A DNA stretch of 64,000 nucleotides from a virus, in the IMG/VR virus record IMGVR_UViG_3300045988_119718, positions 64,001 through 128,000 of that record; one strand, written 5' to 3'. Numbering within the stretch: position 1 is the stretch's first letter; the number at the start of each line of letters is the position of its first letter. Below are positions 24,501 through 62,418 of this stretch, piece by piece. The notes under the pieces were generated by a model that made no database searches, was not told the DNA's origin, and worked only from the letters and a program-made list of their open reading frames with translations. Both the position numbers and the translations under genes were made by a program.

Positions 24501-26119
24501 ATATAGATTCTTATGTAGGTAAAGTAGCTATAGATGGTTCTGATAATATCATTATTACAGAAGATAATAAGAATAATCTTATTGGTAAAACAGTTAAGTT
24601 TAATACTAGTGGTTTATTTATTGATAATACTGTAAATAATTTTGATAGTATTATAATGAGTAGAGATATTTATAATAAGTATGATTATAAAAACAATACT
24701 TATGTAATGCTATTTAAACGTGGTATGCTGCCAGAATGGTATAATAAAATTCAATATACCAATGATAAATTCTATTTCACTGATATACCTAGAGCTGATT
24801 ATAGGACTATTTATATGGAAGAGTATGAAAAGCAATATATCCAAGTAATGGGTAAAGAAGGGGAATTTTACAATGGTAAAACTACTAGATCGTTTAAAGT
24901 AGAAGATGGGACTGATTTTGAAACTGGTTATGAAATATCAGTAATTGCAGATTATGGCTATACAGCTGGTAAGGTTAAAGAATCCCCTGGTATTGTAACT
25001 AGTGATTCTTGGATTAGAGCTTATGAACCAGAAATAAACTTCTATACTGTAACTGTAGTTACCTCTCCTCATCAACATATTAAAGCCACTATTATCAGCA
25101 ATAAAGAAGGATATGATTTATCTACTTTGGAAAAATTATCATATACTGATACTACATTTAGAGTTCCTTACAATACTACAGTTAATTTTGAATTAACTGC
25201 TGATAAAGGATATACAGCTGGAGAATTAAATTATAACTCTATTGTTGTAACTAAAGATACTACTATTAAAGCTGCAAGAGAAGCAGACACTAATGATTAT
25301 ACTATTAGAACAGCTAATTTGTATAAAGATATTATCGATATAAGTATAGAATATAAAGATAAAGAATATAAAGATGTTACTGTTAATGCTAAATATGCTG
25401 ATACATTTAAGGTCATTATAAAAACTCTTAACGATAGATATGTATACAATGGAATAGAATATAATGAAGATACTATGCACAAAAATGATGATGGTTCATA
25501 TACTTTATTAGAAGATACTGTGATATCTGTAAAACAACCATTAGAAAACGCTCATAGATTCTATATCTACGATAACTCTGATATGGATATAACCGCTAAA
25601 AATTATGGCATTGATAATAAACTGATATCTTCTTGCAGTATAAATGAAGATATGAAAATTATTAATAGAGATATAATTAAAGTCAATGTTAAGCCAAATA
25701 GTAATTATAATGCGGCTATTCCATTATTAATAGAAGGTACTCCTAAAGCATTAGTAAAGCCTGATAACGAAAATAACCAAGCTGAATTAAATTACACTAT
25801 TACTGCTGGAGAAACAGATATTAGTATTAGAGCATCTGATACTAAGATTAGATACTTTACTATTAATATTCCTAATAAAGATAATCAGACTATTACGATT
25901 AAATATGTAAACCCAGTTGATAGTGGTACTTATACTACTATTAAGTCCGTAAGTGTACCATATGGTACTATATATACAATTACAGTAACTCCGAATGAAG
26001 GATATAATGCTGGTACAGCTAATCCTTCTAGTGGTACAGTAACCAGTACTGTAAATATCAATGTAACAGATGCTACTAAGATTAGATATAAAGTTTACCT
26101 TAATGCTGGCAATGGTTAA
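21521..26119 (+). CDS. giant virion adhesin / fibre protein (1532 aa) with LamG/ConA-like, CBM5/12-like repeats and C-terminal Ig-like modules
   Basis: RBS AGGAG. LamG-like segment (aa ~40-225) ends ...GYIDDFVLVKGLS. Five tandem ~45-aa repeats W.KP..Y..GD.V.YNGK.Y......P....W (aa ~292-530). C-terminal repeated modules end in GYTAG / GYNAG. Confidence 0.7.
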   Translation: MDYETLINLKFKRTEGSVDLTKSKWSSVVINEANYREETVDYSSAGRFDNGEAAYLDGEFSVINKITGKNLSLDLNADEFTFALWVNCDFTKMNMKQYLLCGNNQIKNSNNSIYLQPDKFKTNMSIVLVSSTGTKIEIPFIENSGLILTGRWVWLRLTKSNDNKINFYINNELIGTSSVITSSFKLIFNNNETCIGKGYDADYLYYPHFKGYIDDFVLVKGLSYNKAKVPSTYFLNEIDPSLLEDAANVWDEKEREFSQYDSITNAIEWKRFNTKEEIDKREQALIPYMLTPIWKQCDINLPTWIKPVLTNPYRINDKVIYNINQIYNNTIDFNTEYPDAANGWKLIHNTLDDIKEWEKPNKYYNYMDKVLYNKRVYQSQVNYNTELPAAWMVLTALTNSEKEELDDDIYKWNKEIEYAFKDRVKYNNKYYISIMNNNLGYIPGDTTYWKEVGGGTSFITDWVKPTTYKNGDIVSYNGKYYHSNIDYNILTPGNHHVEWTEITYWEQPKYKNVYVDGDKVFYKGKTYICNLAKDSSGNYKYHEYSIVAPDKYVNKKYYKALYHIIPEGGNYYDPRDVESIFWQEIPKTQITDYSLYKEWVRGNVYNTGDLVVATDYDWKQTFISEGFFQNKQFTIDRDDTTIKIKLYDAWDNHYLSNDKDRIYFKKNYLEAFNLIEVDGYILMINNKFIKWTDIDIIRSDRFVTLSIKKPSSFVVKDVVLIRLPCKVIYSETGYMPDNGIKLFGFDTNGNFGSDINIYAVNNRLRELVYTDTKFDNIFIDTNLDHKITRSNLFVFDEDGKFITRDNYTISSANIFTYIPIDTDKKYTLYCIWDDTENSNEDNLALIPNDIRVRQYLRNYNTNTNMDNDYPVDLQQLNKEFDYSVVRHTSDKRYDDNISNSMNGIFNYNKNKFDSVYEEVRPVNIEEYSEAYMNSLKRNIRITIDETNLPQLLHSYIVEGTDLIELCDENKNKYIGKTVIMKLRQYLSVTLTKSNIDSYVGKVAIDGSDNIIITEDNKNNLIGKTVKFNTSGLFIDNTVNNFDSIIMSRDIYNKYDYKNNTYVMLFKRGMLPEWYNKIQYTNDKFYFTDIPRADYRTIYMEEYEKQYIQVMGKEGEFYNGKTTRSFKVEDGTDFETGYEISVIADYGYTAGKVKESPGIVTSDSWIRAYEPEINFYTVTVVTSPHQHIKATIISNKEGYDLSTLEKLSYTDTTFRVPYNTTVNFELTADKGYTAGELNYNSIVVTKDTTIKAAREADTNDYTIRTANLYKDIIDISIEYKDKEYKDVTVNAKYADTFKVIIKTLNDRYVYNGIEYNEDTMHKNDDGSYTLLEDTVISVKQPLENAHRFYIYDNSDMDITAKNYGIDNKLISSCSINEDMKIINRDIIKVNVKPNSNYNAAIPLLIEGTPKALVKPDNENNQAELNYTITAGETDISIRASDTKIRYFTINIPNKDNQTITIKYVNPVDSGTYTTIKSVSVPYGTIYTITVTPNEGYNAGTANPSSGTVTSTVNINVTDATKIRYKVYLNAGNG

Positions 26120-26776: not shown

Positions 26777-27326
26777 ATGACAACAACTTTAAAAGGAACT
26801 ATACGGGGGGGGGGTAACCTTTAGTGCCTCTCCAGCTATAATTATACCAAAAATACACTACTACATAGCTAAAGGCTCTAGCCCATGGTATAGTAGTTAC
26901 TGGAAGGATAAGAAATTAGTTACTAATGTAGATGAATCTGTATCTGGGCAAGCTACGGTTACATGCAACACTATAACAGATACGTACTATATGTTCTTTA
27001 ACCTCTCTAATCTTACTACAATAGATTTATCTAATTTCGATACATCTAAAGTAACTGTTATGGCTGATATGTTTGCTCTTTGCTCTAATCTTACTACAAT
27101 AGATTTATCTGGCTTTGATACTTCTAAAGTAACTAATATGAGTTTTATGTTCTATAACTGTTCTAACCTTACTACTATTAAAGGCACTATAGATATGACA
27201 AATTGTGTAAGTTATCACAATATGTTCGATGGTTGTACCAAGCTTAAAGATGTTAATATTATGAATCCACCGGCAAACTTTAATGATGCTAAATTGTCTC
27301 CTTCTCAATATACCATAGCATCATAG
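26777..27326 (+). CDS. phase-variable leader + DUF285 (BspA-like) domain protein; the ATG at 26777 is out of frame with the G10 tract in this sequence (OFF state), the DUF285 part is ORF 26991-27326
   Basis: ATG at 26777 gives MTTTLKGTIR. The G10 tract is at 26805-26814. With G9 or G12 the frame continues GGVTFSASPAIII...GQATVTCN...MFFNLSNLTTIDLSNFDTSKVTVMADMF... into the DUF285 repeats FxxCxxLTTIDLSxFDTSKVTNM. Confidence 0.6.
26805..26814 (+). repeat. homopolymeric G10 tract (putative slipped-strand phase-variation switch)
   Basis: Ten consecutive G in a genome of about 30% GC, placed at codons 10-13 of the leader. Confidence 0.8.
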
Positions 27327-31532: not shown

Positions 31533-33008
31533 GTGATAACTTTGAGTGAAAACAGCTATCTTATAACTCTTTTACAAAAAGAAAATCAAACTATAATAGC
31601 TTATGAATTGAATGATAAAGGAGAATATACTGGTGTAAGCCATACTGAATCATTCTTTGCTAAAGCTAATTCTAAATGGAAATTTACTGTAATACCCGAT
31701 AAATTTCATGAAGATTATTGGATTCATATTATACAATCTGATCATCAAACAATTATAGTTAGAGATAACGCAAGATTTCATGATTATAGAGCTGGTGTAT
31801 TAGTATCTTATCCAGATGATGATAAGCTTACTGGTATTCAAGCTGGTGATTTAAATAGTGGTATTTATCCAGAAACTAATTATGATGTTGCTGTAGAAGA
31901 ACCACATGATAGATATAAATACTTAGTAGTTAATCAAAATTGTAGAATCTTTGCTACATTAGCTAGAGATTTATACAATAATACTGATTATCATACAGTA
32001 ACTATTAAACAAGTTAAGCATCAAACTATAGTGCTTACTTATAGAAATAAAAAGTACTATTCTGATACTATAGTTGAAAATAATGAAGATTATACTGTAG
32101 AATTAATACCAGACCCTGGATATACTGCTACTTCATTAATTATTAATGGTAAAACTATAAATAGCTTAAAGTATACTGGTAAAGCTGCTGAAGATCTAAC
32201 TATAACAGCAGTACAATCACAAGCAGGTACAGATTCTAACTATTTAGAATTTATATTTAAAGAATTTGATTCTAGAATAGAAAGATTTAGTAATAGTGAT
32301 GGGAAATTATTAGTAGGTACTCTACAAGAGGTTACAACCATTATTAACCCAGATAAAAACATATGTGAAATTACTATTATACAGTCTGCTAATCAGACCA
32401 TCCATGTATATATACCATACAAAGGCGGTACTGACCACACATCTTCCTTTACTTGTCCGTTAGGTACAACCTATGAAGTAGAGGTTATAGCTGATAAGGG
32501 ATATATAGCTGGTACACCGAATACCAAGGTAGGAACAATTAATAGCAATATGTCTATTGATGCTAGCCCTGCTGTAAAGCCTCAAATATATATAGCTAAA
32601 GGTAGTAGTGGTGGATGGTATAATAAAGTAAACGAAACAATGGAGTGGAAGGATAAATCTCATGTAATTAAAGTAGATGAATCTATACCAGGACAAGCTA
32701 CAGTTATCTGTGATGGTAATATAACTAATATGAAGTATATGTTCTATGCATGTAACAACCTCACTTCAATAGACTTATCTAACTTTGATACATCTAATGT
32801 AACTAACATGGGCATGATGTTCTTTGGCTGTGATAATCTTACTACTATTAAAGGTGTATTCGATATGAAGTCTTGCACAAATTATGCCGGTATGTTTGCG
32901 ACATGTACTAAACTTACTAATGCTAAGATTAAAAATCCGCCAAAGGATACTGATTGGTGGAAAAATGCTGGATTTAACTCTACATCTCAGTTCACTATAG
33001 TATCATAA
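31533..33008 (+). CDS. Ig-like module protein with C-terminal DUF285 (BspA-like) domain (491 aa; the true start may be TTG at 31542)
   Basis: GY-x-A[GT] modules DPGYTATSL and DKGYIAGTP. C-terminal KGSSGGWY...VDESIPGQATVICDGNITNMKYMFYACNNLTSIDLSNFDTSNVTNMGMMF is paralogous to the 26777 gene. Confidence 0.65.
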   Translation: MITLSENSYLITLLQKENQTIIAYELNDKGEYTGVSHTESFFAKANSKWKFTVIPDKFHEDYWIHIIQSDHQTIIVRDNARFHDYRAGVLVSYPDDDKLTGIQAGDLNSGIYPETNYDVAVEEPHDRYKYLVVNQNCRIFATLARDLYNNTDYHTVTIKQVKHQTIVLTYRNKKYYSDTIVENNEDYTVELIPDPGYTATSLIINGKTINSLKYTGKAAEDLTITAVQSQAGTDSNYLEFIFKEFDSRIERFSNSDGKLLVGTLQEVTTIINPDKNICEITIIQSANQTIHVYIPYKGGTDHTSSFTCPLGTTYEVEVIADKGYIAGTPNTKVGTINSNMSIDASPAVKPQIYIAKGSSGGWYNKVNETMEWKDKSHVIKVDESIPGQATVICDGNITNMKYMFYACNNLTSIDLSNFDTSNVTNMGMMFFGCDNLTTIKGVFDMKSCTNYAGMFATCTKLTNAKIKNPPKDTDWWKNAGFNSTSQFTIVS

Positions 33009-33040: not shown

Positions 33041-33838
33041 ATGGCAACAGTAAATATTAAACAACCAAAGAATGCAACTATCCACGTATATACCCCTCAG
33101 AAAAATGGAGGGGTAGATCATACCTCTACTTTTACAGTAGATGAAAATACTGCATATGAAGCAGAGGTTATTGGTGATAGTGGATACTTACCTGGGGATT
33201 TAGGCGTAGGTATTGAAAGAGAAGTTGCTTCTAAAGATTTAAAATATATTTATCTATATAAAAAAAATAAAATTAAAACTACTCCATTATTATTTGGGCA
33301 TAATGATAATTTATTTGTATCTTCATTATATGACCCGAGTAATATAATTTATAGTGGTAACACTAATAACCCAAAGCTTACCAATAATAAATTTATACAA
33401 CCTGAGATATTGAAGTATTATGGGTTTGATTATTTATTTGGATACTTTGACGAATTAGAGGGAAGTTCTATTAGTAGTGCAACTGTTCCTGTTAAAAACT
33501 CTAATTATAGGCTAACTATAAGATTATTAGGGTTTAATCTATTTAAAATGAGTAAGAATTCTAATAAGAAAACTGGTAGATGGGTTATAGGATTTAATAA
33601 AATCGATAATCTGACTATTAATTCTATAACTATGCGTATAGCTGATAGTAATGGTAATGAAATAGCTGTAATTAAAGATTTTAGATATTTAAATGCTATT
33701 CCTGGGGATACCAATAATAGTAATAGAGTACAGATATATTGCACTAGCTCATCGATAAATAATGAATTAGACCCAACCTATTTATACTTATTAGCTAATA
33801 AATCTAATATAGTTAAAGTAGGGTTAGTAGTAGAATAA
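33041..33838 (+). CDS. Ig-like module protein (265 aa)
   Basis: N-terminal module MATVNIKQPKNATIHVYTPQKNGGVDHTSTF...GDSGYLPGDLG is near-identical to the C-terminus of the ORF at 55386-56750. Confidence 0.55.
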   Translation: MATVNIKQPKNATIHVYTPQKNGGVDHTSTFTVDENTAYEAEVIGDSGYLPGDLGVGIEREVASKDLKYIYLYKKNKIKTTPLLFGHNDNLFVSSLYDPSNIIYSGNTNNPKLTNNKFIQPEILKYYGFDYLFGYFDELEGSSISSATVPVKNSNYRLTIRLLGFNLFKMSKNSNKKTGRWVIGFNKIDNLTINSITMRIADSNGNEIAVIKDFRYLNAIPGDTNNSNRVQIYCTSSSINNELDPTYLYLLANKSNIVKVGLVVE

Positions 33839-33849
33839 AGGAGGATTAA

Positions 33850-35838
33850 ATGGCTAAAAAAGATCTATATTATAATAATAATGAATCTACTAAACAAATT
33901 ATAACAGAAGTAGAATTAGATAACCATAATACTTCTGATAATGCTCATAAAGAAAAATTTGATAAATATACATTACATACTCCTACTGGAATATGGGATG
34001 CAGTATATCAATTAGGCCCAAATTATAGATTTACTGATCAATCTACTAAAGGATTTGCTAAGTTAGGATTATTTGCATCAGTATATGATACTAAAGACGT
34101 ATTTGAATATCAACCTTCTCAGTTTGGCACTTTATTAAATTTACCTACTACTATAAAAGATAGTAATTTTATTACAGTTACCCAGTTATGGTTTGACCAA
34201 TCTGGGGATTTATTTATTAGAACTGGTACTGTAAATAATCCTATTAATAAACTTCAATTTACTAAAGTAACTTTAATGACTGATGTATTTAATAAATATG
34301 GCAATGAATTCCCAGCTACTAATTTAGTTCCTGGTATGTTATTTTATAGGGCTGATGAAAATAAATTATATGTATATGTGCCTAGTGATAGTAACTCTAA
34401 CTGGAAGATGATTTATGATTTAAATAAAGATGCTAATATAGCAGATGGCTTGTCTCATGCTTGGTATAAATTAGACAATTCTACTAATGATACCAGTATA
34501 CCTAAACTAGCAGAGTCTGAAAACATGAATACGTATATTAAACCTGGTGTATACTCATGCATTTCTGGGCAGATAGCAGGTACTTTAGTAAATAAACCAT
34601 CTGGGGCAAATAGTAACTTTAGATTAATTGTAGAAGAAAATACTCCTGGATATGGAGTACAAAAAGTATTTACTAATAATCCTTGTAAAATTTTTATAAG
34701 AGGCTTTAATACTACTAATAATAAAACTACATTTACAGATTGGAAAACTTTAGTAAATAGCACAGATACAATTTTAAATGCAGAAACAGCAACTAGAGAT
34801 AGTGCTGGTAATGTAATAAAAGATACTTATGTTAAGAAATCTGGAGATATCATGACTGGTGGTATTATCTTTAGTAAATCTGCCACTGGTAATAACTATG
34901 TAGGCCCTGGTGAAGGGGATGTAAGTGATGCTGTAGTTGCTAATCAATCTAATTTAGCAATTAATGGATGGCAGACAGTTGGTGTTAGAAAATCTAGCAG
35001 TGACCCATATACAATTAGTATGAATACTAGAACTGGTGATATCCATACTAAAGGTAGCATCAAAGGAGATAGCACCGCTACATTTACTGGTGCTGTAACT
35101 GCACCTACATTTAATGGTCATGCATCTGAAGCTAGTAAAGTATTAGCAACCAATATTTCTCAAGATACAGTATTGATGGAATCTATCCAAACTGATGGGG
35201 ATGGCTCCAGAATTGTCATAACAGGCGTTGGAGACCATCATGATGGTTGTCATTTAAAATTTCAATTAAACAACTCCGATCCTGGTAATATTGGTAGTCA
35301 AGCAAGCTTCTACCTTGAGCAGTACCATGATAATTATCATACATTAGAAAGTAGGGCTACTCTATTAGATTATGCACATAATACGTCTTTCCCAGGGGTA
35401 TTAACCGCAGCTAGAGTAGTAAATGCTCAGTATAATGACTATGCAGAATTCTTTGAACGTGGCGAAGAAACTGAAGCTGGAGATATTATAGCTTTAGATT
35501 TATCATCTGATGAAGAAAGATATGTTAAAGCTACTCCAAAGAATAGAGTTATAGTAGGAATTCACTCTGATGAATATGCCCATATCATTGGTGGTGAAAA
35601 AGATAAAACCTTAGAAGAGAACTTAAAGAATTTCATTCCTGTTGCATTAGCAGGTCGTGTACATGTTAAAGTATCTGGTGTAGTATATAAAGGGGATAGA
35701 ATTGTTATTAGTAATGGTATGCCTGGTATTGGTATAGCTCTTACTAATAATTCTACTTCTAATAAACAAGTAATTGGTATAGCATTAGAGAATAAATATA
35801 ATCTTGGTATAGGTAAGATTAGATTATTGCTGAAGTGA
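33850..35838 (+). CDS. tail fibre protein (662 aa)
   Basis: RBS AAGGAGGA. The C-terminal ~110 aa (VVNAQYNDYAEFFERGEETEAGDIIALDL...HSDEYAHIIGG...IPVALAGRVHVKV) is shared with ORF 61345-62418. Confidence 0.6.
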   Translation: MAKKDLYYNNNESTKQIITEVELDNHNTSDNAHKEKFDKYTLHTPTGIWDAVYQLGPNYRFTDQSTKGFAKLGLFASVYDTKDVFEYQPSQFGTLLNLPTTIKDSNFITVTQLWFDQSGDLFIRTGTVNNPINKLQFTKVTLMTDVFNKYGNEFPATNLVPGMLFYRADENKLYVYVPSDSNSNWKMIYDLNKDANIADGLSHAWYKLDNSTNDTSIPKLAESENMNTYIKPGVYSCISGQIAGTLVNKPSGANSNFRLIVEENTPGYGVQKVFTNNPCKIFIRGFNTTNNKTTFTDWKTLVNSTDTILNAETATRDSAGNVIKDTYVKKSGDIMTGGIIFSKSATGNNYVGPGEGDVSDAVVANQSNLAINGWQTVGVRKSSSDPYTISMNTRTGDIHTKGSIKGDSTATFTGAVTAPTFNGHASEASKVLATNISQDTVLMESIQTDGDGSRIVITGVGDHHDGCHLKFQLNNSDPGNIGSQASFYLEQYHDNYHTLESRATLLDYAHNTSFPGVLTAARVVNAQYNDYAEFFERGEETEAGDIIALDLSSDEERYVKATPKNRVIVGIHSDEYAHIIGGEKDKTLEENLKNFIPVALAGRVHVKVSGVVYKGDRIVISNGMPGIGIALTNNSTSNKQVIGIALENKYNLGIGKIRLLLK

Positions 35839-35839
35839 G

Positions 35840-37228
35840 GTGAAACTAATAATGGCTGATGATAATATTAAAAGTACTGTAATAAGAAAAGCAAGAGTAT
35901 CATTTGTTAAAGATAATACCCAGAATATTATCCATTATGAAACCGATGCTGATTGTGTTAAAAATCTTAATACGGCTATAGTAAACGGTGTAACTAATGT
36001 ATTTAATAATGATGATACTATTAGAGATATTATTACTAATATAGCTTTAGGTGGTGCTGATTTAAAATCTTATGCTAAATTAGATTCACCTAGTTTTATA
36101 GGAGAACCTAAAGCTCCTACTCCTATTACTTCTGATAACTCTCTTAAAATAGCAAATACAAAATTTGTAAATAATAAGATAGCAGAAATACGTGGTAATA
36201 CTATTGACAGAAACGATTTAAATAATTATGTAAATAAAACTGGTAATGATACTATTACTGGGTTAAAAACTTTTAATACAGATATTAATACTTCTGATAC
36301 TAGTACTATATACTGGAAAACTGGTAATACTACGGTAGCTAGTATAAATAAGACAAATTACACTGGCACAGCTGATAAAGCAGTTAAAGATCAAAATGGA
36401 AATATCATTAATTCTACATATGCTACTAAGGCTGAATTAAATAATAAACAAAATACTTTAACTTTTGATACTACTCCTAAAGCTGGGAGTACTAATCCAG
36501 TAACTAGTGGTGGTATATATAATGCTATTAAAGCATCTGGCAGTATAAGCGGTGATAGTTTAGCTGTAGTAGCTAAAACTGGTAGTTATACAGACTTAAT
36601 TAATACTCCGAGTTTAGCTACAGATTCTACATTAGGATTTACTAAGTTATATAGTTCTTCTGGTTCTAGAAGTGATGGTACTATTACACAAGCTGGTATT
36701 ACTGAGCTTTTGTCATATAAATTAGATAGAGAAAACTTATCTCCTATAGCGTTAAGTGGTGAATGGTCAGATATTTACAATGTACCTGTAGCTAGTGATA
36801 CTACCCAAGGTATTACTAAGCTCTATTCTACAACAGGTACAAACACTGACGGTGCCATATCTCAATACGGTATAAATAATATATTAGCTAATTATGCTAA
36901 GCTAACTGATATTACAGCTGCATATAGATATAAAGGAACTGTAGATAATTATAGTAATTTACCAACTGCACATAAAATAGGTGATGTATATAATATCAAA
37001 AATGCAGATGCTGCTAATAATATTAAAGCTGGGGATAATGTAGTATGGAATGGTACTGAATGGGATAATTTATCTGGTGTTGTAGATTTATCTGCATACT
37101 GTACTAAAGCTGAGTTAGATAAAAAAGCTAACATAGAATCTCCTACATTTACTGGTACTGCAACTGCAAGTAATCTTACAGTTACTAACTCTCTTAATAT
37201 TCCAGGTGGCAAAATCTGGATAGAATGA
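35840..37228 (+). CDS. tail fibre protein (462 aa)
   Basis: Fibre repeat AKTGSYTDLINTPS. The C-terminal tip ...LNIPGGKIWIE is shared with ORF 59220-60506. Terminator at 37241-37279. Confidence 0.6.
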   Translation: MKLIMADDNIKSTVIRKARVSFVKDNTQNIIHYETDADCVKNLNTAIVNGVTNVFNNDDTIRDIITNIALGGADLKSYAKLDSPSFIGEPKAPTPITSDNSLKIANTKFVNNKIAEIRGNTIDRNDLNNYVNKTGNDTITGLKTFNTDINTSDTSTIYWKTGNTTVASINKTNYTGTADKAVKDQNGNIINSTYATKAELNNKQNTLTFDTTPKAGSTNPVTSGGIYNAIKASGSISGDSLAVVAKTGSYTDLINTPSLATDSTLGFTKLYSSSGSRSDGTITQAGITELLSYKLDRENLSPIALSGEWSDIYNVPVASDTTQGITKLYSTTGTNTDGAISQYGINNILANYAKLTDITAAYRYKGTVDNYSNLPTAHKIGDVYNIKNADAANNIKAGDNVVWNGTEWDNLSGVVDLSAYCTKAELDKKANIESPTFTGTATASNLTVTNSLNIPGGKIWIE

Positions 37229-37240
37229 TAAAAAATAAAA

Positions 37241-37279
37241 TATATTCTAGATAGCTCATATGAGCTATCTAGAATATAT
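37241..37279. terminator. bidirectional stem-loop terminator
   Basis: TATATTCTAGATAGCTCATATGAGCTATCTAGAATATA lies between convergent genes. Confidence 0.6.
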
Positions 37280-37298: not shown

Positions 37299-37715
37299 TT
37301 ATTTTTTTACAAGTTTAAATATACCATTTCTATTTTTTAAATTATACTCTTTGCATTTTTGTGCTAGCTCATTAAATTCGTCATCATATACTTGATAATC
37401 TAGTAATATAAGTTCTGCATAAACATTGCCTAGTGTCCATGTCGCACGCCTGTTTCTAAACTGTTTCATTATCCATCTTTGCTTGTCTTTAGACTCATTC
37501 ATTCCAAAAGCATTTCTCATTCTTTCATAAAAAGATGGAAATTCTTCTACTTCTTTCTTTGACATATGATAAGCTATAGACAAATTATAATGTCTAGGCT
37601 CAATATGCCGGTCAAGTAAACGTATATAAACCTTGATGTCATTATATTCTCTTTCGGTCATTAATAATTCAAAAACATAATGCTCTTTATCATATGACTC
37701 ATCTTTAATTATCAT
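37299..37715 (-). CDS. hypothetical protein (138 aa)
   Basis: ORF. Confidence 0.45.
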   Translation of the reverse strand: MIIKDESYDKEHYVFELLMTEREYNDIKVYIRLLDRHIEPRHYNLSIAYHMSKKEVEEFPSFYERMRNAFGMNESKDKQRWIMKQFRNRRATWTLGNVYAELILLDYQVYDDEFNELAQKCKEYNLKNRNGIFKLVKK

Positions 37716-54924: not shown

Positions 54925-55356
54925 TTAATAATCAGTAACTGTTGGGGTATGAGTATTAATTTCAGGAGACCATGAAATTGTGAAACTGAGCCGATCGGCA
55001 CCATCTGCATTATACTCAGTCTCCCCGATCCAGTATACCAACTTATTTGTACCAGTAACTACGTTATACAAAACTGCATCCATATAGAATGATTCTTGTT
55101 CATCTTGCATTTTGTATTGCAATTCACCAGTAAGCCTATATTCACGGGAAGGTGTTACCCCCACGAAAGTGGTTTCATCAATTTCATTACCATAATAATC
55201 AATACCATACAACCTTGCTTTAACAACTTTTACATTTGGGAGGGGGTAAATACACCCATATGATTAAAATTAGTAGACCCAGTAGGTATACTTACAGTTG
55301 CTGGAGAGGCACTAAATACTACCCCCCCCCACTACTCCCTTAATCGTTGTTGCCAT
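54925..55356 (-). pseudogene. leader-family paralog P4, doubly frameshifted (G9 tract, interrupted GGGAGGGGG tract, C-terminal SPEIN..TDY module)
   Basis: RBS AGGAGGA + ATG at 55356: MATTIKGVVGGG, then a stop. The +1 frame continues VFSASPATVSIPTGSTNFNHMGV. The frame returns at CCCCCTCCC (55247-55255) to ...YGIDYYGNE...TISWSPEINTHTPTVTDY. Confidence 0.5.
55322..55330 (-). repeat. homopolymeric C9 tract (G9 on the coding strand)
   Basis: Seen directly. Confidence 0.8.
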
Positions 55357-55385: not shown

Positions 55386-56750
55386 TTATTTAACACTTAA
55401 ATCACCTGGTAAGTATCCACTAGCAGCTACAACTTCTGCTTCGTAGGTAGTTCCTATTGGGCAGGTAAATGTGGACGTATGGTCTGTACCACCAGATTTT
55501 TGTGGAGTATAAACGTGAATAGTCTGGTTAGCAGACTGAACAATAGTTACAGTTGCTGTAGCTACTGTTGCTGCATTATGAGATACCGTAGTATTACCAT
55601 TTACAGTACCAGACTTTGCAGAACCTGGGTTATATCCACTATCAGCGGTATAGCTAATACTATAAGTAGTTCCGTAAGGAACACTTAAAGTTTGTGAACT
55701 CTTAGTAGCTGTTGTAGTATAAGACGGTAAGGTACCACCATATGAACTATTAGTTGCTAATCTAAGATTATAAGACTGATTTGCAGTAGCCGGAACAGTT
55801 AAAGTATAGTATCTTAATGAAGCACTAGCAGATTTAGCTGGGATAGATGTAGTATTTGTTACTGTACCACTTACTGAATTAGAAGCTGTATATGTATATG
55901 CATTTGTAGCACTATTAGCCGTATAAGCTACAGAGTACGTAGTACCATAATTTACGGTATAAGATGTAGCACTAGCAGTAGCTGCTTTAGCAACTCCATC
56001 TACAGTAGCTACATAAGTCTGGTTAGTAGTTGCTCCAAATGACAAGGTAAAGGTCTTAATAGCAGCAGCTGTAGCAGCTATAGTTACAGAATCAGTAATA
56101 GTACCACTAGTAGATGTTAATGTACCGGCATTATATCCAGTATCTGGAGTTATAGTAGCAGTCCATTTATCGCCATATGTAGCAGTAAATGTAGAAGTAT
56201 GTGCTACACCATTGCATGTTACAGTAATAGTCTGATGATCTGATTGATTAATATAAAATGTAAAAGTCTGTTTAGCAGCAGCGGTACAAGATAATGTAAA
56301 GCTACCAGCTTCAATATTAGCTTGAGTAATTCTATATGGGTTAGATACAGTAGTACCATTAATAGTTGGAGAAGATGCTTTATATCCTGTAGCTGGAGTA
56401 CAAGTAATAGTTAAAGCAGTATTCATTGGTAATAAAGTACCTGTAGATACAGCAGTACCAGAAGCATTAGTGACTCTAATAGTTTGGTTAGCTACTTGAG
56501 TAATATTCATAGCAGCTTGAGTCCATTTTAATATTGCATACTTAGTAGAAGAACCATTCTTCTGAATTCTAATACCAGAAGCATTATTAGCTGTAAGAGA
56601 AGTACCTAAACCAGCATATACATTAGCACCATCTACTTCTAAATTAATAGTAGAATATCCTGCACAGTCAGCTTTAGAAGTATATAAAGCACAAGTTCCT
56701 GAAGTACCATTTGTTTTCTGATAATGAAGAGATTTAGTTATCTTACTCAT
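55386..56750 (-). CDS. Ig-like repeat protein (454 aa), Thr/Ser/Ala-rich
   Basis: Repeated modules containing GYKAS, GYNAG, GYNPG and GYLPG. The C-terminal module is near-identical to the N-terminus of ORF 33041. Confidence 0.6.
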   Translation of the reverse strand: MSKITKSLHYQKTNGTSGTCALYTSKADCAGYSTINLEVDGANVYAGLGTSLTANNASGIRIQKNGSSTKYAILKWTQAAMNITQVANQTIRVTNASGTAVSTGTLLPMNTALTITCTPATGYKASSPTINGTTVSNPYRITQANIEAGSFTLSCTAAAKQTFTFYINQSDHQTITVTCNGVAHTSTFTATYGDKWTATITPDTGYNAGTLTSTSGTITDSVTIAATAAAIKTFTLSFGATTNQTYVATVDGVAKAATASATSYTVNYGTTYSVAYTANSATNAYTYTASNSVSGTVTNTTSIPAKSASASLRYYTLTVPATANQSYNLRLATNSSYGGTLPSYTTTATKSSQTLSVPYGTTYSISYTADSGYNPGSAKSGTVNGNTTVSHNAATVATATVTIVQSANQTIHVYTPQKSGGTDHTSTFTCPIGTTYEAEVVAASGYLPGDLSVK

Positions 56751-57003
56751 TTTCTATCCAAACCTTTCCACCATCTACATGGATAATAAATGAATCCTTT
56801 AGTTTAGATAAAGAATCCACTTGTGATTGTAATTTATTTATTTTTTCTGATAAATCAGTACTTTCTTTTTTAAGATGATCTATTTCATTATTCTTAGCAG
56901 CTAAGATATTATTAAGAGAATCTATCTCTAATGAAAGTTGATTATACTCAGATGAAGTATAACCACCTAATAAGTGTATTAAAAACTTAAACATAGTAAA
57001 CAC
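56743..57003 (-). CDS. coiled-coil protein (86 aa) ending in the fibre-tip motif GGKVWIE
   Basis: Heptad-like LKKESTDLSEKINKLQSQVDSLSKL. C-terminus ...HVDGGKVWIENE resembles NIPGGKIWIE of the two tail fibres. Confidence 0.45.
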   Translation of the reverse strand: MFTMFKFLIHLLGGYTSSEYNQLSLEIDSLNNILAAKNNEIDHLKKESTDLSEKINKLQSQVDSLSKLKDSFIIHVDGGKVWIENE

Positions 57004-57295: not shown

Positions 57296-57699
57296 TTAAT
57301 AATCTGTTATTGTAGGTGTTTTTTTGTTAATTTCTGGTGACCATGATATACGATAGGTAAAGCTATTAAATTCTCTAAGCGGTACTCCATGCACCATCCA
57401 ACTCATATTATCATGTGTGCTGCATTGCACGCCAAAAACCATTGTCTGCCCCTGTCCATGAAAAAAACTTTTGGGTTTATGATATGATCCAGGAGTAACC
57501 CCTATATAAACAGGGTCTAAAGTAAAGATGCCACCACTAACATCCATTGTTAGGCTTAATGCAAGTATGTGAACATTAGCTGGGATAACAAAATTAGGTA
57601 AATCACCTTCATAACTCCCAGTAGGTACACTCACGGTAGCAGGACTAGCACTAAACGTCGTCCCCCCCCCCAATTATACCTTTTAATGTTGTAGCCATA
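57296..57699 (-). CDS. leader-family paralog P3 (poly-G 10-11; the upstream ATG at 57699 is currently out of frame)
   Basis: ATG at 57699 gives MATTLKGII + G tract (57662-57672). Downstream frame GGGTTFSASPATVSVPTGSYEGD...YRISWSPEINKKTPTITDY. Confidence 0.55.
57662..57672 (-). repeat. homopolymeric C11 tract (G on the coding strand)
   Basis: Seen directly; the count is 10-11. Confidence 0.8.
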
Positions 57700-57719: not shown

Positions 57720-58105
57720 TTAATAATCAGTATCGTCTGGTGTGTGAGTATTAATTTCAGGAGAATAATATATAGTTACCCCTTCTATATCATTTTCATC
57801 ATTAACATCCTCAATTTTCCAACTAGTAATTTGATGTATATTATGGGTAAAACAATAAATACCATATACCATAGTATGATGAGGTGGTATATAATCTGTT
57901 TGAAGTCCCCATACATGTGTTGAGCCAGGGGTAACACCCACGTAAAATCCACGTACATAAAGTACCTTTATTCCATTTGGAACTGTAAATCTTTCTGAGC
58001 TATCTGGGCCTATATATATGCTTCCACTCGGTATACTTGCAGTTGCTGGGGTGACACTAATAGTTACCCCCCCCCCCATATAGTTCCTTTTAAAGATTGT
58101 GACAT
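57720..58105 (-). CDS. leader-family paralog P2 (poly-G 11; upstream-ATG frame hits TAA; an internal ATG just before the tract is in frame)
   Basis: RBS AAAGGAA + ATG at 58105 gives MSQSLKGTIW + G11 (58067-58077), then TAA. The in-frame ATG-GGG-GGG-GGG-GTA gives MGGGVTISVTPATASIPSGS...IYYSPEINTHTPDDTDY. Confidence 0.55.
58067..58077 (-). repeat. homopolymeric C11 tract (G on the coding strand)
   Basis: Seen directly. Confidence 0.8.
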
Positions 58106-58123: not shown

Positions 58124-58544
58124 TTAATGATCAGTTACGGTAGGAGTTTGCTTATTTATTTCAGGAGAGTATTTTATATAAAATCTATCTATTTTGCAAT
58201 CTTCGCCTTCTCTGGTTTCAGCATTTACATAAGTATAGTATTTTTTATTTGGAATTACTCCAACGTATACTGTGTGACTAGTAATGCCTTCGCCAGTACT
58301 ATAGATCCATTGACCGCTACTACTATCTACGGTTAGAACTACAATATGTTCTGTACCACTACTAATATAGGCAGATGCATAAACTTCAATCACTTTTACA
58401 CCATTAGGAATTATAAAGTCATCATTAAGGCCGTTTTCATCATTAGATCTATCCACTAAATATCCAGTTGATACAACTATTTCAGTAGCGGGACTAGCTG
58501 TGAATGTTAGCCCCCCCGATTGTTCCCTTCATCGTTGTAGCCAT
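58124..58544 (-). CDS. leader-family paralog P1 (poly-G 7, OFF relative to the ATG at 58544)
   Basis: RBS AGGAGA + ATG at 58544: MATTMKGTIGG, then out of frame. The +1 frame reads LTFTASPATEIVVSTGYLVDRSNDENG...FYIKYSPEINKQTPTVTDH. G6 or G9 would restore the frame. Confidence 0.55.
58511..58517 (-). repeat. homopolymeric C7 tract (G on the coding strand)
   Basis: Seen directly. Confidence 0.75.
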
Positions 58545-58755: not shown

Positions 58756-59232
58756 CTACTTAGCAATCTTAGAAGCTGATTTCTCAGCTTCTGATTCTAT
58801 TTTTGATCTATTCATAATTACATATTCTTTATCATATTTACTTTGCTGCCATTTATGAACTAATTCATGACAAAGTATTTCTTTTTGTTTATTTATAGAT
58901 AATCCTGATTTATTAAGAAAAATCTTATTAGTATTCCATATTCCACATGCATATGAAGTTCTTACTAATCTATTAGCCATATCTTTAGAAAGTTTATTTT
59001 CTATTAATATTTCTCTATATTCTTTATCTGTATTGGAATAGTATACTTCTAAATCTTCAAATTTATAATTTAAACATGACTCAGTATTTGCAATACACCA
59101 TTCAAAAATAGCTTTATCTTGTGTATTAGCATTTATTAGATTATGAGCACTTATAGATATAAATTGCAAATTTAGTAGTAGAAATACTAATAAGATAATT
59201 CTAATAATTATAAATCTCATTATTCTATCCAA
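58756..59232 (-). CDS. signal-anchored HExxH zinc-metallopeptidase-like protein (158 aa)
   Basis: N-terminal hydrophobic anchor IIIRIILLVFLLLNL and HELVHKWQ motif. Start overlaps the stop of the tail-fibre gene (translational coupling). Confidence 0.5.
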   Translation of the reverse strand: MDRIMRFIIIRIILLVFLLLNLQFISISAHNLINANTQDKAIFEWCIANTESCLNYKFEDLEVYYSNTDKEYREILIENKLSKDMANRLVRTSYACGIWNTNKIFLNKSGLSINKQKEILCHELVHKWQQSKYDKEYVIMNRSKIESEAEKSASKIAK

Positions 59233-60506
59233 ATCTTACCACCAGGAATATTTAAAGTGGTAGTAGCAGTTACAGTAGCTGCACTAATTCCTGTGCAAGC
59301 AGTTGGTACACCATTAGTAAAGTATACAGGTTGAGTAGTGCTACCAGCATTAGAAGTTAATTTATTAGCAGCTGCTGCATTAGCAGTCTTACCTAAGTAA
59401 GTATTTGATGCGTCTGTTTTGGTTAAATATCCACTTAAGTCTAATTTCTGTGTTCCTAGCTGTTCCCATTTACTATTTACATAGATATATTCAGTATACA
59501 GGTTTTGAGTATCATTACCTGTCTTTTTCAAATAAATAGTAGTATCAGAAATATTAGTAGTTGGTAAATCATTTACTACAGCAATAGCAAATTTAGGAAT
59601 AGAAGAAATCTGAGCATTAACTTCACCCTTAGTATAGTAATTGCTTAAAGATTGATGGGAAGTAAGTGGAGTAATGCTATTAGCACCAAGAGTAATTACA
59701 CCATTAGCAATCTTAGCATCGGTAATACCATAACCAGATAATGTAGTAGGATTAGTACCAGCAGTTACATGCCCTTGAGCATTAACTGTTACAGATTTAT
59801 ATGTACCCGCAGTTACACCAGAATTAGGGTGAGTATATACTGTGTTAGTATCTGTACTTGAAATAGTAATTACACCATTAGCATCAGATGTAACTGTAGT
59901 AGCACCAGTACCTACAATCTTATGGGAATCTCTTACAGTGCAATTATCTAATACATTAAGGTATACATTGCCATTGCTAGCAATAGCATTAGATGTAGCG
60001 GAAGCAGTTGCACCTACTTTTAAACCAGTAGTATAATGGGTAAGATGAGCAGGAGGGGTATATCCTAAAGCACCAATTACATTATCCGCAGTAAGACTAA
60101 TAGTACCTGTATCTACAGTAATATTAGAGCCTACTTTAACACCACCCTTAGTAGTGGTGTTAGCATCAGGAAGAGAATATACTGTATCTGTAAATTTAGC
60201 ATTAGCTGGTACATTGCTTAATACAGTATGACCATTTACTGTACTAGCATTACCGCCATTAGCAGGTAGCGAAGTAGGAATAGCTACTGATACACTTTTA
60301 CTACCATCATAACTAGCTGTAGAACCACCAGTAAATGAAATAGCATTAGGATTTTTAAGTGAAGTAGGAGTTCCTTTTAAATCAGAGTAATTACCAGTTG
60401 TAGCTACTTTAGATAGTGAATCTTTGGTTGCATATTTGCTATCAGAATTAGTTACCAAACGCTTCAGTGTTTCTATAGTAGCAACAGGTTTAGATAATCT
60501 TGTCAT
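59220..60506 (-). CDS. tail fibre protein (428 aa)
   Basis: Gly/Thr/Asn-rich fibre repeats. C-terminus ...TLNIPGGKIWIE is identical to the ORF at 35840-37228. Confidence 0.6.
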   Translation of the reverse strand: MTRLSKPVATIETLKRLVTNSDSKYATKDSLSKVATTGNYSDLKGTPTSLKNPNAISFTGGSTASYDGSKSVSVAIPTSLPANGGNASTVNGHTVLSNVPANAKFTDTVYSLPDANTTTKGGVKVGSNITVDTGTISLTADNVIGALGYTPPAHLTHYTTGLKVGATASATSNAIASNGNVYLNVLDNCTVRDSHKIVGTGATTVTSDANGVITISSTDTNTVYTHPNSGVTAGTYKSVTVNAQGHVTAGTNPTTLSGYGITDAKIANGVITLGANSITPLTSHQSLSNYYTKGEVNAQISSIPKFAIAVVNDLPTTNISDTTIYLKKTGNDTQNLYTEYIYVNSKWEQLGTQKLDLSGYLTKTDASNTYLGKTANAAAANKLTSNAGSTTQPVYFTNGVPTACTGISAATVTATTTLNIPGGKIWIE

Positions 60507-60639
60507 TATTTGTTTCCTTTCTTTTATAAAAAATTAAAAGTTGAAACTTTTATAGTATTGTTATCATTATTGAGTACGCTTATAAAAACAATATAGTAAT
60601 TTTATTTCCTATATTTTTATAGAAAGAGTTGATATTGTA

Positions 60640-61326
60640 ATGAATAAGCGTACCTCTATTTCTGATATTTATTCATCATCGTTAGTCATTAATAGTAAAG
60701 AATTAGACAGAGCTTACAAGAAATTAGATAAAGACCAATTAGATTATTTTAATTCTTTTTCTAATCATATCATCACTTGTGTAAATGCTGCATCTGGTTC
60801 TGGTAAAACGTTTGTAGCTGTGTTAGCAGCATTACAAGCATTTAACCAAGGAGAAGTGAATAAGATTTACTATATTAGAATACCAGATGATAGGTCATTA
60901 AGATTAGGATATCTTCCAGGGTCTTCAGATGATAAACAGTCTATTTATACAACTCCATTCTATAATGCATGTACTAGTTTAGGATTAAGAGAAGAAGATA
61001 TAGATATAGCAAGAGATAATAATGAAATAGTTCTATGTACTGATATAGTACTTAGAGGTACTAATATCTGTAATGCATTTGTTATTATAGATGAAGCACA
61101 AAATGGTAGATTATCTGATTTAAAACTTATATTAACTAGAATATCAGATAACTGTAAAGTAGCATTAATAGGTCACTCAGCTCAGTATGATAACTTTAAA
61201 GGAACTAATGAAAAAGCTTTTGAAAAATATATAGAGCATTTAACTAAGAAATCATGGGCTATAGAATGTAAACTTACTAAAAATTATAGAGGTAAACTTT
61301 CTTCATGGGCTGATGAATTATATTGA
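60640..61326 (+). CDS. phoH: PhoH-like ATPase
   Basis: VNAASGSGKTFVAVLAALQAF (Walker A) and FVIIDEAQNGRLSDLKLILTRI, the PhoH signature. Confidence 0.7.
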   Translation: MNKRTSISDIYSSSLVINSKELDRAYKKLDKDQLDYFNSFSNHIITCVNAASGSGKTFVAVLAALQAFNQGEVNKIYYIRIPDDRSLRLGYLPGSSDDKQSIYTTPFYNACTSLGLREEDIDIARDNNEIVLCTDIVLRGTNICNAFVIIDEAQNGRLSDLKLILTRISDNCKVALIGHSAQYDNFKGTNEKAFEKYIEHLTKKSWAIECKLTKNYRGKLSSWADELY

Positions 61327-61344
61327 TAGAAAGAAGGAATATAG

Positions 61345-62418
61345 ATGGATCAAAACTCTACAGATTGGCGTTCACAACAATTCTTTGTTACTAAGAATGG
61401 TAAAAAAGAATTAATACATATAGAAACTGATACTAAAAATATTGTAGACTTCTATACAGGAGTAATAGCAATTATTAATAAATTAAAAGGCATAGCTAAT
61501 GGCTTAGCTACATTGGATGCAAATGGTCATGTACCGCAAGACCAATTAAACAATATTGAACAGCAATTAAAAGATTTAGAGAAAAAACTCACCAATCTTA
61601 TCAATAACAACAATACTAAGCTAAATACAGATTTAGCAAATGCAGTTAAAGAATTAAAAGGCTTAATATCTGCATTAGATGCAAAGTCTGATGGAGCTTA
61701 TGTTAAAAAAGTAGGGGATACAATGACTGGTTCATTAACATCCACTGTACAATCCACTACTTGGGTTAATGGTATGAAAAATGCGGCTTTAAATTGTAAC
61801 TTTAGTTCTTATTCTGCTATAGCTAATTCTCCTTCTAAAAATGGTAGATTTTCTATTTCTTCTTATCCTGACCAAAATAATAATTTCTATATTTCTTATA
61901 TGACGCAGGATAAAATAAATGCTGATACTAATGCTACTGATAAGCAATTAATTTGGAGTGGTGATACTGGTGTATTGACTTGTACTAAAGTAGTCAATTC
62001 AGTATATAACGACTATGCCGAATTATTCCCTAAAGGTGAAGAAACTGAACCAGGGGATTTAATTGTATTAGACTTAGATTCTAAAGAAGAAAAGTATGTT
62101 AAATCTAGTGCTAAAAATACTAGAGTAGTGGGTGTTCATTCAGATGAATATGCTCAACTTATTGGTGGAGATAATGTTTCATTAGAAGAAAATCTTAAAA
62201 ACTATATTCCTGTATCTTTAGCAGGACGTATTAGGGTTAAATTTATTGGTATATCAAAAAAGAATGAATATGTAGTAGCTGATACTCATAATCCTGGTGT
62301 AGCTAGATTATATTATAAGGATTTAAATAAACCAGAAGATATTATTGGAATACTTGTAGAGGAAGATTCTAATACCAATCCAAATGAAATTAGAAGATTA
62401 AAAATAAAACTTAAATAA
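61345..62418 (+). CDS. tail fibre protein paralog (357 aa)
   Basis: Coiled-coil neck region. C-terminal ~110 aa are paralogous to ORF 33850-35838 (NDYAELFPKGEETEPGDLIVLDL...HSDEYAQLIGG...IPVSLAGRIRVKF). Confidence 0.6.
   Translation: MDQNSTDWRSQQFFVTKNGKKELIHIETDTKNIVDFYTGVIAIINKLKGIANGLATLDANGHVPQDQLNNIEQQLKDLEKKLTNLINNNNTKLNTDLANAVKELKGLISALDAKSDGAYVKKVGDTMTGSLTSTVQSTTWVNGMKNAALNCNFSSYSAIANSPSKNGRFSISSYPDQNNNFYISYMTQDKINADTNATDKQLIWSGDTGVLTCTKVVNSVYNDYAELFPKGEETEPGDLIVLDLDSKEEKYVKSSAKNTRVVGVHSDEYAQLIGGDNVSLEENLKNYIPVSLAGRIRVKFIGISKKNEYVVADTHNPGVARLYYKDLNKPEDIIGILVEEDSNTNPNEIRRLKIKLK

Follow-up and report, generated by a model that had tools for sequence, protein, structure and literature searches.

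Two tail-fibre loci lie in the 64,000-nucleotide stretch of viral DNA analyzed here (IMG/VR record IMGVR_UViG_3300045988_119718, positions 64,001 to 128,000; hereafter the window), and the question that they raise is why their products share C-terminal ends. Locus 1 encodes the fibre proteins A1 (33850..35838, + strand; 662 amino acids, aa) and B1 (35840..37228, +; 462 aa). Locus 2 encodes A2 (61345..62418, +; 357 aa) and B2 (59220..60506, –; 428 aa), and a coiled-coil mini-protein (56743..56994, –; 83 aa) carries a variant of the B-type ending. All five open reading frames (ORFs) named in the original prediction, which was made from the DNA alone, are present at the positions that it gave. 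The C-termini of A1 and A2 on the one hand, and of B1, B2 and the mini-protein on the other, are two unrelated assembly devices. The best explanation of the system as a whole, which we favor with modest confidence, combines a Peptidase_G2-type (G2) auto-chaperone on A1 and A2 with a plug-and-socket joint between the B-type tip and an N-terminal domain (N-domain) encoded by a separate gene. The evidence comes from conserved sequence, predicted folds, linkage of genes and the domain architecture of the partner protein; from these we infer cleavage, trimerization, physical binding and presence in the virion.

An 11-residue tip is shared by two fibres and, as a variant, by a mini-protein

When B1 was compared with B2 by composition-corrected BLASTP, the sole similarity was the last 11 residues, LNIPGGKIWIE, identical at 11/11 positions (E=6e-5 in this single comparison). 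The shared fibre C-terminus of the original prediction is therefore real for these terminal 11 residues, and it is a hairpin only rather than a domain. Long, low-identity alignments of B1 with B2 and of A2 with B1, obtained by BLASTP without composition correction, were taken as compositional, these fibres being rich in Thr, Ser and Asn. The tip of B1 (37193..37225, +) is preceded by a widespread extended ending, SPTFTGTATASNLTVTNS; the tip of B2 lies at 59223..59255 (–). Across the 11 tip codons, 6 of the 33 nucleotides (nt) differ, in five codons and all synonymously, and the flanking DNA is unrelated. Synonymous-only differences set between unrelated flanks therefore point to selection on the peptide, with no recent copying of the DNA. 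Translated in all six frames, the window contains the pattern [IVL]W[IVL]E only three times, each time 0–2 residues from the stop of B1, B2 or the mini-protein.

The mini-protein ends in HVDGGKVWIENE, which has 6 of 11 residues in common with the B1/B2 tip. It had been described as an 86-aa coiled-coil ORF with the tip motif; the motif is present as this variant, and alignment of the family places the start at ATG 56994 (83 aa), not at GTG 57003 (86 aa). Its N-terminal MFKFLIHLLGGYTS is followed by a coiled coil and by a C-terminal hairpin, SFIIHV-DG-KVWIENE (codons 56746-56793), and the family as a whole is built as MFKFLIHLLGGYTS, a coiled coil of variable length and SFIIHVDGGKVWIENE. The AlphaFold2 (AF2) model of the mini-protein has a helix at residues 14-66, then a β-hairpin with strands at 69-74 and 77-82. 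The tip is thus predicted by modeling to be a β-hairpin of 11-16 residues, composed of a strand, a P/D-G-G turn and a K-I/V-W-I-E strand. Among relatives of the mini-protein both ends are nearly invariant, and the central coiled coil carries deletions of 5, 7, 14 and 18 residues; the length of the stalk may be tuned. For the window's own copy we estimate a coiled-coil stub of ~8 nm.

The gene next to the tip opens with a conserved N-domain

The stop codon of the mini-protein overlaps the start (ATGAGTAA) of ORF 55386-56750 (55386..56750, –), which encodes a partner protein of 454 aa. Its conserved N-domain (aa 1 to ~76, nt 56517-56750; hidden Markov model, HMM, E=1e-30) is followed by immunoglobulin-like (Ig-like) repeats. 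The consensus of the N-domain, over ~75 aa, is roughly MS.L.KKLHI.K.GG...TA.IYT...ECP.PNLKV.VDG.NGYVKLG...A..GR...YAIL, and ORF 55386-56750 is the only ORF in the window that matches the HMM.

At tip-ending loci, the next gene on the same strand, at an offset of –8 to ~+200 nt, opens with this N-domain and then diverges. Sampling through the tip gave a same-strand N-domain gene within ~200 nt for 11 of 14 non-redundant tip-ending ORFs, whether of fibre or mini type; the three without an adjacent partner were B1, B2 and the B2 orthologue on L009. One locus left out of HMM building (L037) matched the N-domain at E=1e-26. In the reverse direction, sampling through the N-domain and blind to the tip, a tip-ending ORF lay upstream in 3/3 viral loci, and among 30 metagenome loci with upstream DNA the strict tip pattern was found at 26 and obvious variants at three (...INGSELWIESEL, ...INGSELWIESELG and ...INESELWIE). 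The usual arrangement at the metagenome loci is a 4-nt overlap of stop and start. The triad of the window recurs on an unrelated 48-kb contig (L051), where a B2-like fibre ends ...TLNIPGGKVWIE at its stop and is followed by a mini-protein running from MLNKLIKLLGGYTKDEY to a terminal FTICVDGGKVWIE and by an N-domain gene.

An exhaustive phmmer search with the N-domain retrieved 45 representative clusters, with proteins of 71–595 aa, and in 43 of them the match begins in the first 40 residues. The parts distal to the N-domain are very unlike one another and include BspA-type leucine-rich repeats (LRRs), Gly-rich domains, a ...SPEINxxTPT... module and an Ig-like QTIHVYTPQKSGGTDHTSTF module, the last of which is also present in the window. 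As a query for related loci the window's own N-domain returned its orthologue only, and a word-indexed protein search with the N-domain returned a single fragment.

Neither the tip nor the N-domain matched a family in Pfam, PHROGs or NCBIfam. In the same three collections the partner and the mini-protein gave generic coiled-coil noise only, with no match to Caudo_TAP or another chaperone family, and direct scans of A1, A2, B1, B2, the mini-protein and the partner assigned no family to the shared parts; the partner showed a sub-threshold PF03903 (T4 gp36) signal at E 0.007. The N-domain profile gave chance matches only against PDB sequences. Four N-domain variants had no tblastn match in 50,697 phage records, a GenBank-phage search made for the N-domain only, and a literature search by the tip-motif string only found no paper.

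The tip recurs in other phages, also at internal positions

The terminal segment, used as a profile, picked out fibre C-termini and mini-proteins as two families; the extended fibre ending reads SPTFTG.x.TA.x.N.LTV.x.x.SL.x.IPGGKIWI[E/A]. Scanning viral contigs for GGKIWIE gave the B2 orthologue, a 981-aa fibre ending ...GGKIWIE at its stop, and four large fibres in which the tip is internal. In these four the motif M-x-IPGGKIWIEN is followed by a Gly-rich linker and, within the DNA fetched, by a further 63–426 residues of C-terminal module. This arrangement, an internal tip and then a fused distal module, agrees with the tip being the seat of a distal module. The four fibres (L001, L003, L005 and L013, on IMG/VR contigs of 68–504 kb; motif M[YT]IPGGKIWIEN) had no match in Pfam, and their C-terminal module is uncharacterized and rich in Trp, Tyr and Pro. 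In a Rosetta-stone test, no separate homologue of the post-tip modules of L001, L003 and L005 was found in the window.

Scanning bacterial genomes and metagenome-assembled genomes gave nine more fibre-type ORFs of ~100–150 aa, two of which are truncated where the retrieved DNA ends. These end in ...T(L/S)(N/T)IPGGKIWI[A/S/G] at the stop and come from bins assigned to Alphaproteobacteria, Phascolarctobacterium and Fusicatenibacter; the remaining hits were chance matches or unrelated proteins. Against all PDB sequences at E<=10, the tip profile gave chance matches only, to dihydropyrimidinase-related proteins.

A proposed plug-and-socket joint and the alternatives to it

The tip hairpin is probably the docking plug of the next gene's adhesin-like product. 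We read the pair as a joint because four features coincide: a short conserved hairpin at one protein's C-terminus, an N-domain on the product of the gene that follows, a stop codon that overlaps the next start, and hypervariable distal modules of adhesin type. As judged from the sequences, the hairpin would be the plug of a non-covalent joint, and its socket would be the ~75-aa N-domain of a protein with a gene of its own, which in the window is ORF 55386-56750. The variable distal part of the partner would be a host-binding adhesin, built of Ig-like repeats here and of BspA-type LRRs, Gly-rich and other modules elsewhere. With the same plug on two long fibres (B1 and B2) and on a short coiled-coil stalk (the mini-protein), all three would be able to carry the same adhesin. 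Specificity, which the original prediction had assigned to exchanged central regions of B1 and B2, is probably located in ORF 55386-56750 instead.

Several observations weigh against such a joint. Gene adjacency is equally compatible with a chaperone role for the partner. The window, 64 kb of a ~253-kb genome, contains only one N-domain gene, and no such gene directly follows B1, which is followed by a terminator-like palindrome, or B2, which is followed by an M78-like gene. The N-domain HMM did not match the post-tip modules of the fused proteins, which are not homologous to it. Finally, the ~45 loci in all (11 found through the tip, 33 independently through the partner) include many metagenome loci that are closely related, so that the counts overstate the number of independent events.

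An alternative that we consider unlikely is that the hairpin serves as an autonomous folding or trimerization terminator, a foldon-like cap that binds nothing, and that the downstream N-domain gene is linked to it for other reasons. The AF2 model, in which the coiled coil runs into a C-terminal hairpin that has a central Trp, is what such a cap would look like, and this layout of the mini-protein resembles that of the T4 fibritin foldon. The presence of the tip on B1 and B2, which have no adjacent partner, and its internal position ahead of unrelated modules would also suit a cap. However, a cap leaves unexplained the near-perfect gene linkage in both sampling directions, the overlapping stop and start codons, and the finding that the conserved part of the partner is exactly its N-terminal ~75 aa; nor did any foldon-containing PDB chain match the tip profile at E<=10. 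The cap and docking roles are not mutually exclusive, and a combination of cap, chaperone and docking roles is conceivable.

No better a candidate, in our estimation, is an assembly role: the N-domain protein may be a tail-fibre assembly chaperone (Tfa-, gp38(T4)- or gp57A-like) that recognizes the hairpin during folding and is no component of the virion, or the mini-protein may itself be the chaperone, a tip mimic that pre-organizes the partner. The mini-protein stands between the fibre and the partner both in the window and in L051, and T4 gp57A is likewise a small coiled coil. Fibre genes typically have chaperone genes directly downstream (PMC9608196), and the gp38 forms of T4 and T2 differ (PMC3157838). 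Against an assembly chaperone, the distal parts of the partners are large, hypervariable and of adhesin type, reaching proteins of up to 595 aa, which would be unexpected, and neither Caudo_TAP nor another chaperone family was matched in Pfam, PHROGs or NCBIfam. Very improbable is a DNA-level origin of the tip identity, as a recombination hotspot for swapping fibre modules or as a ribosome-binding or coupling signal (GGTGG): fibre genes are mosaic and the Gly-Gly codons GGTGG are Shine-Dalgarno-like and lie ~15–20 nt upstream of the overlapping downstream start, but all 6/33 differences between B1 and B2 are synonymous, no gene is positioned downstream of B1, the hairpin pattern survives in variant tips such as INGSELWIE although the nucleotides do not, and the motif is also internal in long ORFs.

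If the plug-and-socket joint is extended to its fullest form, it would be a previously undescribed and widely used non-covalent joint of uncultured gut and rumen phages, by which any trimeric stalk carries interchangeable adhesins (LRR, Ig-like, Gly-rich and others), and which here would present one adhesin on three stalks of very different length; or else the conserved mini-protein would be a tip-mimicking assembly factor that pre-trimerizes the adhesin and hands it to the fibres. We put this extended form forward tentatively, as a possibility that falls short of an even chance.

A1 and A2 end in a divergent phi29-type auto-chaperone

A1 and A2 end in a divergent auto-chaperone of the phi29 gp12 (Peptidase_G2) type, which is a known kind. 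By BLASTP, A1 516-660 and A2 209-352 have 73/145 identities (50%, E=5e-43). The sharing of a C-terminal domain of ~110 aa between these proteins, as originally proposed, is thus real, with an extent of ~145 aa, of which ~133-135 aa lie C-terminal to the predicted cleavage site; formal alignment gave significant similarity both for this pair and, at E=6e-5, for B1 and B2. In A1 the domain is D530-K662 (35437..35835, +), with predicted self-cleavage at N529/D530, between ...AQYN and DYAEFFERGEETEAGD, and a predicted mature part of aa 1-529. In A2 it is D223-K357 (62011..62415, +), with predicted cleavage at N222/D223 and a predicted mature part of aa 1-222.

A search with the A2 domain gave 40 homologues, of which 10 have a precomputed match to PF11962 (Peptidase_G2). 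Aligning 39 sequences revealed a nearly invariant block, Y-N-D-Y-A-E-F-F-P-R-G-E-E-T-E-P-G-D, whose D, A and E (of NDYAE) are strictly invariant in 39/39; G..T..GD, GG and IP..L.GR are also conserved. In every aligned sequence (A1, A2 and the 37 homologues) the domain extends to the stop codon. When the family members, which are 43-64% identical to A2, were scanned singly, 20 of 39 matched PF11962 (best E 8.3e-7). The AF2 model of the A2 domain (pLDDT 89.8) is β-rich with a single short helix. Foldseek against the PDB placed 3gqh_A, the C-terminal fragment of phi29 gp12, and 3suc, premature gp12, at the top (E 2.7e-4, TM 0.59-0.61). Among BFVD matches of the model the highest-ranking named ones were 'Preneck appendage protein' (TM reaching 0.74), while C-termini of large phage tail proteins made up many of the others.

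Residue 1 of 3gqh_A (DFAEYFES) aligns to the D of NDYAE (DYAEFFPR), and a second block aligns VGLLGQIAVRI of phi29 with VSLAGRVKVKV in the A1/A2 family. The Asn before the predicted scissile bond is nearly invariant in this family, and the conserved Asp and Glu (D-x-x-E) are presumably the catalytic residues, as in MEROPS G2. Cleavage of phi29 gp12 is reportedly ATP-dependent. The C-terminal domain of phi29 gp12 is an auto-chaperone without which the chains aggregate, and it is removed by cleavage after folding (PMC3357383).

Some results do not sit easily with the G2 assignment. The full A1 and A2 proteins had no match to PF11962 at E<=0.01, nor did the isolated A2 domain at E<=1. The Foldseek rmsd of the A2-domain model is high, at ~9 Å, and the profile-to-PDB sequence E-values are weak (0.0075 for the tailspike Dpo31, 0.18 for 3GQH). 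The residue before the predicted scissile bond is Asn in A1 and A2, whereas phi29 has Ser. Searched singly against PDB sequences, A1 and A2 gave nothing, and tblastn of the G2 domain against GenBank phages gave one match, in an unannotated faecal phage.

By analogy with phi29, the G2 domain (~133-135 aa) would nucleate trimerization and folding of the fibre from its C-terminal end and would then cleave itself off, at the predicted sites N529/D530 in A1 and N222/D223 in A2. A domain cut off after folding, as the phi29 analogy implies, therefore leaves no common C-terminal domain on mature A1 and A2 and carries no information on shared attachment. Of the two functions originally suggested for the shared domains, attachment or intramolecular chaperoning, chaperoning is supported for A1/A2, and attachment is the best reading for the B-type tip.

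An S74-type intramolecular chaperone (endosialidase/T5 pb1), with which a structural comparison had been proposed, has almost no probability left: it shares the position at the fibre's extreme C-terminus and the general logic of a cleavable chaperone, but PF13884 matched neither A1 nor A2 nor any of the 39 family members scanned, the model is β-rich with one short helix and not an elongated helical body with long β-hairpin tentacles, and the top 50 PDB matches, led by the phi29 type, are without the K1F, GA-1 or T5 chaperone, so that S74 identity is refuted at the level of sequence and of predicted fold. The phi29-type chaperone is β-stranded, unlike the S74-type chaperones of K1F, GA-1 and T5 (PMC4690869).

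Many G2-domain homologues (P0020, P0021, P0027, P0031 and P0033-P0035) are only 164-169 aa long, with ~30 residues (MTGTINFGSSSYYVDKNG..) before the predicted cleavage site, and several of the short homologues are located on contigs of 200-277 kb. They either yield a tiny mature peptide, or represent a split fibre gene with the chaperone acting in trans, or are gene-calling artefacts.

Organization of the two fibre loci

The window is part of a metagenomic contig of ~252.7 kb (GC ~30%), and the source is a gut phage and, from this length, a jumbo phage. In locus 1, A1 and B1 lie 1 nt apart and close a plus-strand operon. Downstream of B1 is a perfect 30-bp palindrome, TTCTAGATAGCTCATATGAGCTATCTAGAA (37245-37274), followed by convergent genes, the first being ORF 37299-37715; the palindrome is probably a bidirectional terminator. 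A promoter and terminator scan gave the same counts as in shuffles, and among GenBank phages megablast turned up neither a match to locus 1 nor a close relative.

Locus 2 is no mirror of locus 1. A2 lies on the other strand from B2, beyond phoH, so that A2 and B2 are transcribed divergently with phoH in between. The minus-strand operon runs from B2 through an M78-like HExxH protein, three small paralogues, a DUF6275 protein and the mini-protein to ORF 55386-56750. In one relative the G2-domain gene has no tip-ending neighbor within 8 kb. With this separation in the window and in the relative, the proposal that the phage carries two fibre pairs is weak.

A1 is fibre-like, with a T4 gp36-like segment at aa 356-428 (PF03903, 27.7 bits; cut-off 26) and a YVKKSGDIMTG motif; A2, also fibre-like, has a coiled coil at ~aa 44-125, a YVKKVGDTMTG motif and a match to phrog_8443 tail fiber (3.9e-6). 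B1, last in its operon, is a modular tail fibre matching tail-fibre PHROGs (best 7e-11), and B2, first in the minus-strand operon, is a modular tail fibre to which the L051 fibre is related. A short N-terminal motif is common to A2 (aa 20-36, 61402-61452; ELIHIETDTKNIV) and B1 (aa 27-43, 35918-35968; NIIHYETDADCVK); it was noticed by eye and alone is not significant, and it may be a common virion-attachment element. Residues ~69-139 of A1 (34054-34266, +) are homologous (E 5e-10) to a globular domain (..HQPTQYGQLINLP..FWI.QPSG..) of the long fibres of L080 and L014. This block is near the N-terminus in A1 and stands directly before the tip hairpin, near the C-terminus, in L080 and L014.

A third shared module was absent from the original prediction. 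It comprises about the last 55-56 aa of the partner (55389..55556, –) and is 71% identical (E=7e-23) to aa 2-56 of ORF 33041-33838 (nt 33044-33208, +), being C-terminal in ORF 55386-56750 and N-terminal in ORF 33041-33838. The same Ig-like repeat (..QTIHVY.P.K.GG.DHTS.F..) is also found in ORF 31533-33008 and in N-domain proteins of other phages (P0077, L052). Stand-alone ORFs lacking the N-domain and homologous to distal modules that are fused behind it in other phages occur at 26862-27323 (+), 54925-55212 (–), and 57296-57673, 57720-58079 and 58124-58456 (–). One of them, a DUF285/BspA module, matches L080 aa 80-234 at 61% identity (E 2e-53); others form a small family ending ..SPEINxxTPTxTDY, like L063 and P0071, to which 54925-55212, 57296-57673 and 57720-58079 are assigned with tblastn support and 58124-58456 by similar ending and size only. 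The stand-alone ORFs are possible cassettes.

Directly after B2, ORF 58756-59220 (–, 154 aa) has an N-terminal hydrophobic segment, an HELVH (HExxH) motif and weak matches to Peptidase_M78 and the phrog_87 metallo-protease; its ATG overlaps the B2 stop codon (TAATG), and its translation may be coupled to that of the fibre. Immediately ahead of the fibre block, ORF 21521-26119 (+, 1532 aa) has a weak match to an RNA polymerase β-subunit PHROG (E 4.8e-8), which might fit the expectation for a jumbo phage with its own RNA polymerase. Several radical-SAM genes adjoin fibre-gene arrays in this phage lineage (L015 8712-16696; L016 695-1855).

Implications and comparison with known systems

The G2-type chaperone belongs to a known kind, and the tip/N-domain joint is apparently undescribed, functionally familiar and widespread in uncultured gut and rumen phages. 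The G2 assignment predicts the mature ends of A1 (N529) and A2 (N222), and the largest shared C-terminal domain would then be absent from the virion. For the joint, a simple rule follows, by which an ORF ending ...G-G/S-x-[IVL]-W-[IVL]-x at the stop, and then a gene opening with the N-domain, marks candidate receptor-binding adhesins. The rule is useful for uncultured phages of the gut and rumen, for which neither a cultured phage nor a family in Pfam, PHROG or NCBIfam offers guidance. For host-range prediction the focus moves away from B1 and B2 and onto ORF 55386-56750 and the nearby stand-alone distal modules. If the binding is true, the joint would be useful to host-range engineering as a compact, natural interface through which adhesins could be exchanged on fibres.

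The A1/A2 domain is closest to that of the phi29 gp12 pre-neck appendage (PDB 3GQH, 3GQK, 3SUC; PF11962; MEROPS G2). In both, a domain of ~135-160 aa is at the extreme C-terminus of a trimeric host-recognition protein, the fold is β-rich, D[YF]AE[YF]F opens the released fragment (a predicted one in A1 and A2) and a second block, L.G...V.V, is shared. They differ in that A1 and A2 are thin and fibre-like, with coiled-coil or T4-gp36-like segments, whereas gp12 is a spike of pectin-lyase fold, and in that the window copies are too divergent to match the Pfam model directly. The best sequence-profile match in the PDB was the Klebsiella phage tailspike Dpo31/Dpo36 with its chaperone domain D4 (PDB 28lx, 28nb, 8ck1). 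Here YADYAEYFE aligns to YNDYAEFF and GLVGQLHVRV to SLAGRVKVKV of the A1/A2 family, and D4, deposited as a separate chain, begins at the YADYAEYFE motif; however, the E-value is only 0.0075, and Dpo31 is a depolymerase tailspike and not a fibre.

For the tip and N-domain, the nearest counterpart is gp37/gp38 of T2-type phages, in which the fibre C-terminus pairs in a lock-and-key manner with the N-terminal attachment domain of the adjacent adhesin (PMC3157838). As in T2, T6 and S16, an adhesin-like gene lies directly downstream of the tip gene, which in the window is true for the mini-protein and not for B1 or B2. The partners likewise have a conserved N-terminal domain, putatively for attachment, ahead of a variable C-terminal part that would confer specificity, and some of them are Gly-rich (P0074, L036). 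No sequence homology to gp37/gp38 was detected in Pfam, PHROG, NCBIfam and PDB searches of the partner, and the pair is an analogue of the gp37-gp38 system, not a member of it. Here the putative plug, an 11-aa terminal hairpin, is present on a coiled-coil mini-protein as well, the partners show a much greater variety of distal modules (LRR, Ig-like and others), and this phage has three plug-bearing stalks for one visible partner.

The foldon of T4 fibritin (wac) resembles the modeled mini-protein in layout, with a trimeric coiled coil and a short C-terminal β-hairpin containing a key Trp, and differs from it in having no sequence match, a Trp in another register relative to the turn, and a length of ~27 aa. 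To our knowledge, docking of an adjacent gene's product is not known for the T4 foldon. The anchor-and-branch systems of Klebsiella, SP6 and K1-5 phages use a conserved docking interface to mount variable receptor-binding proteins on a common anchor (PMC6872550), and the same principle would apply here; there the interface consists of a T4 gp10-like anchor and short N-terminal peptides, whereas here it would be formed by a C-terminal hairpin and a 75-aa N-domain.

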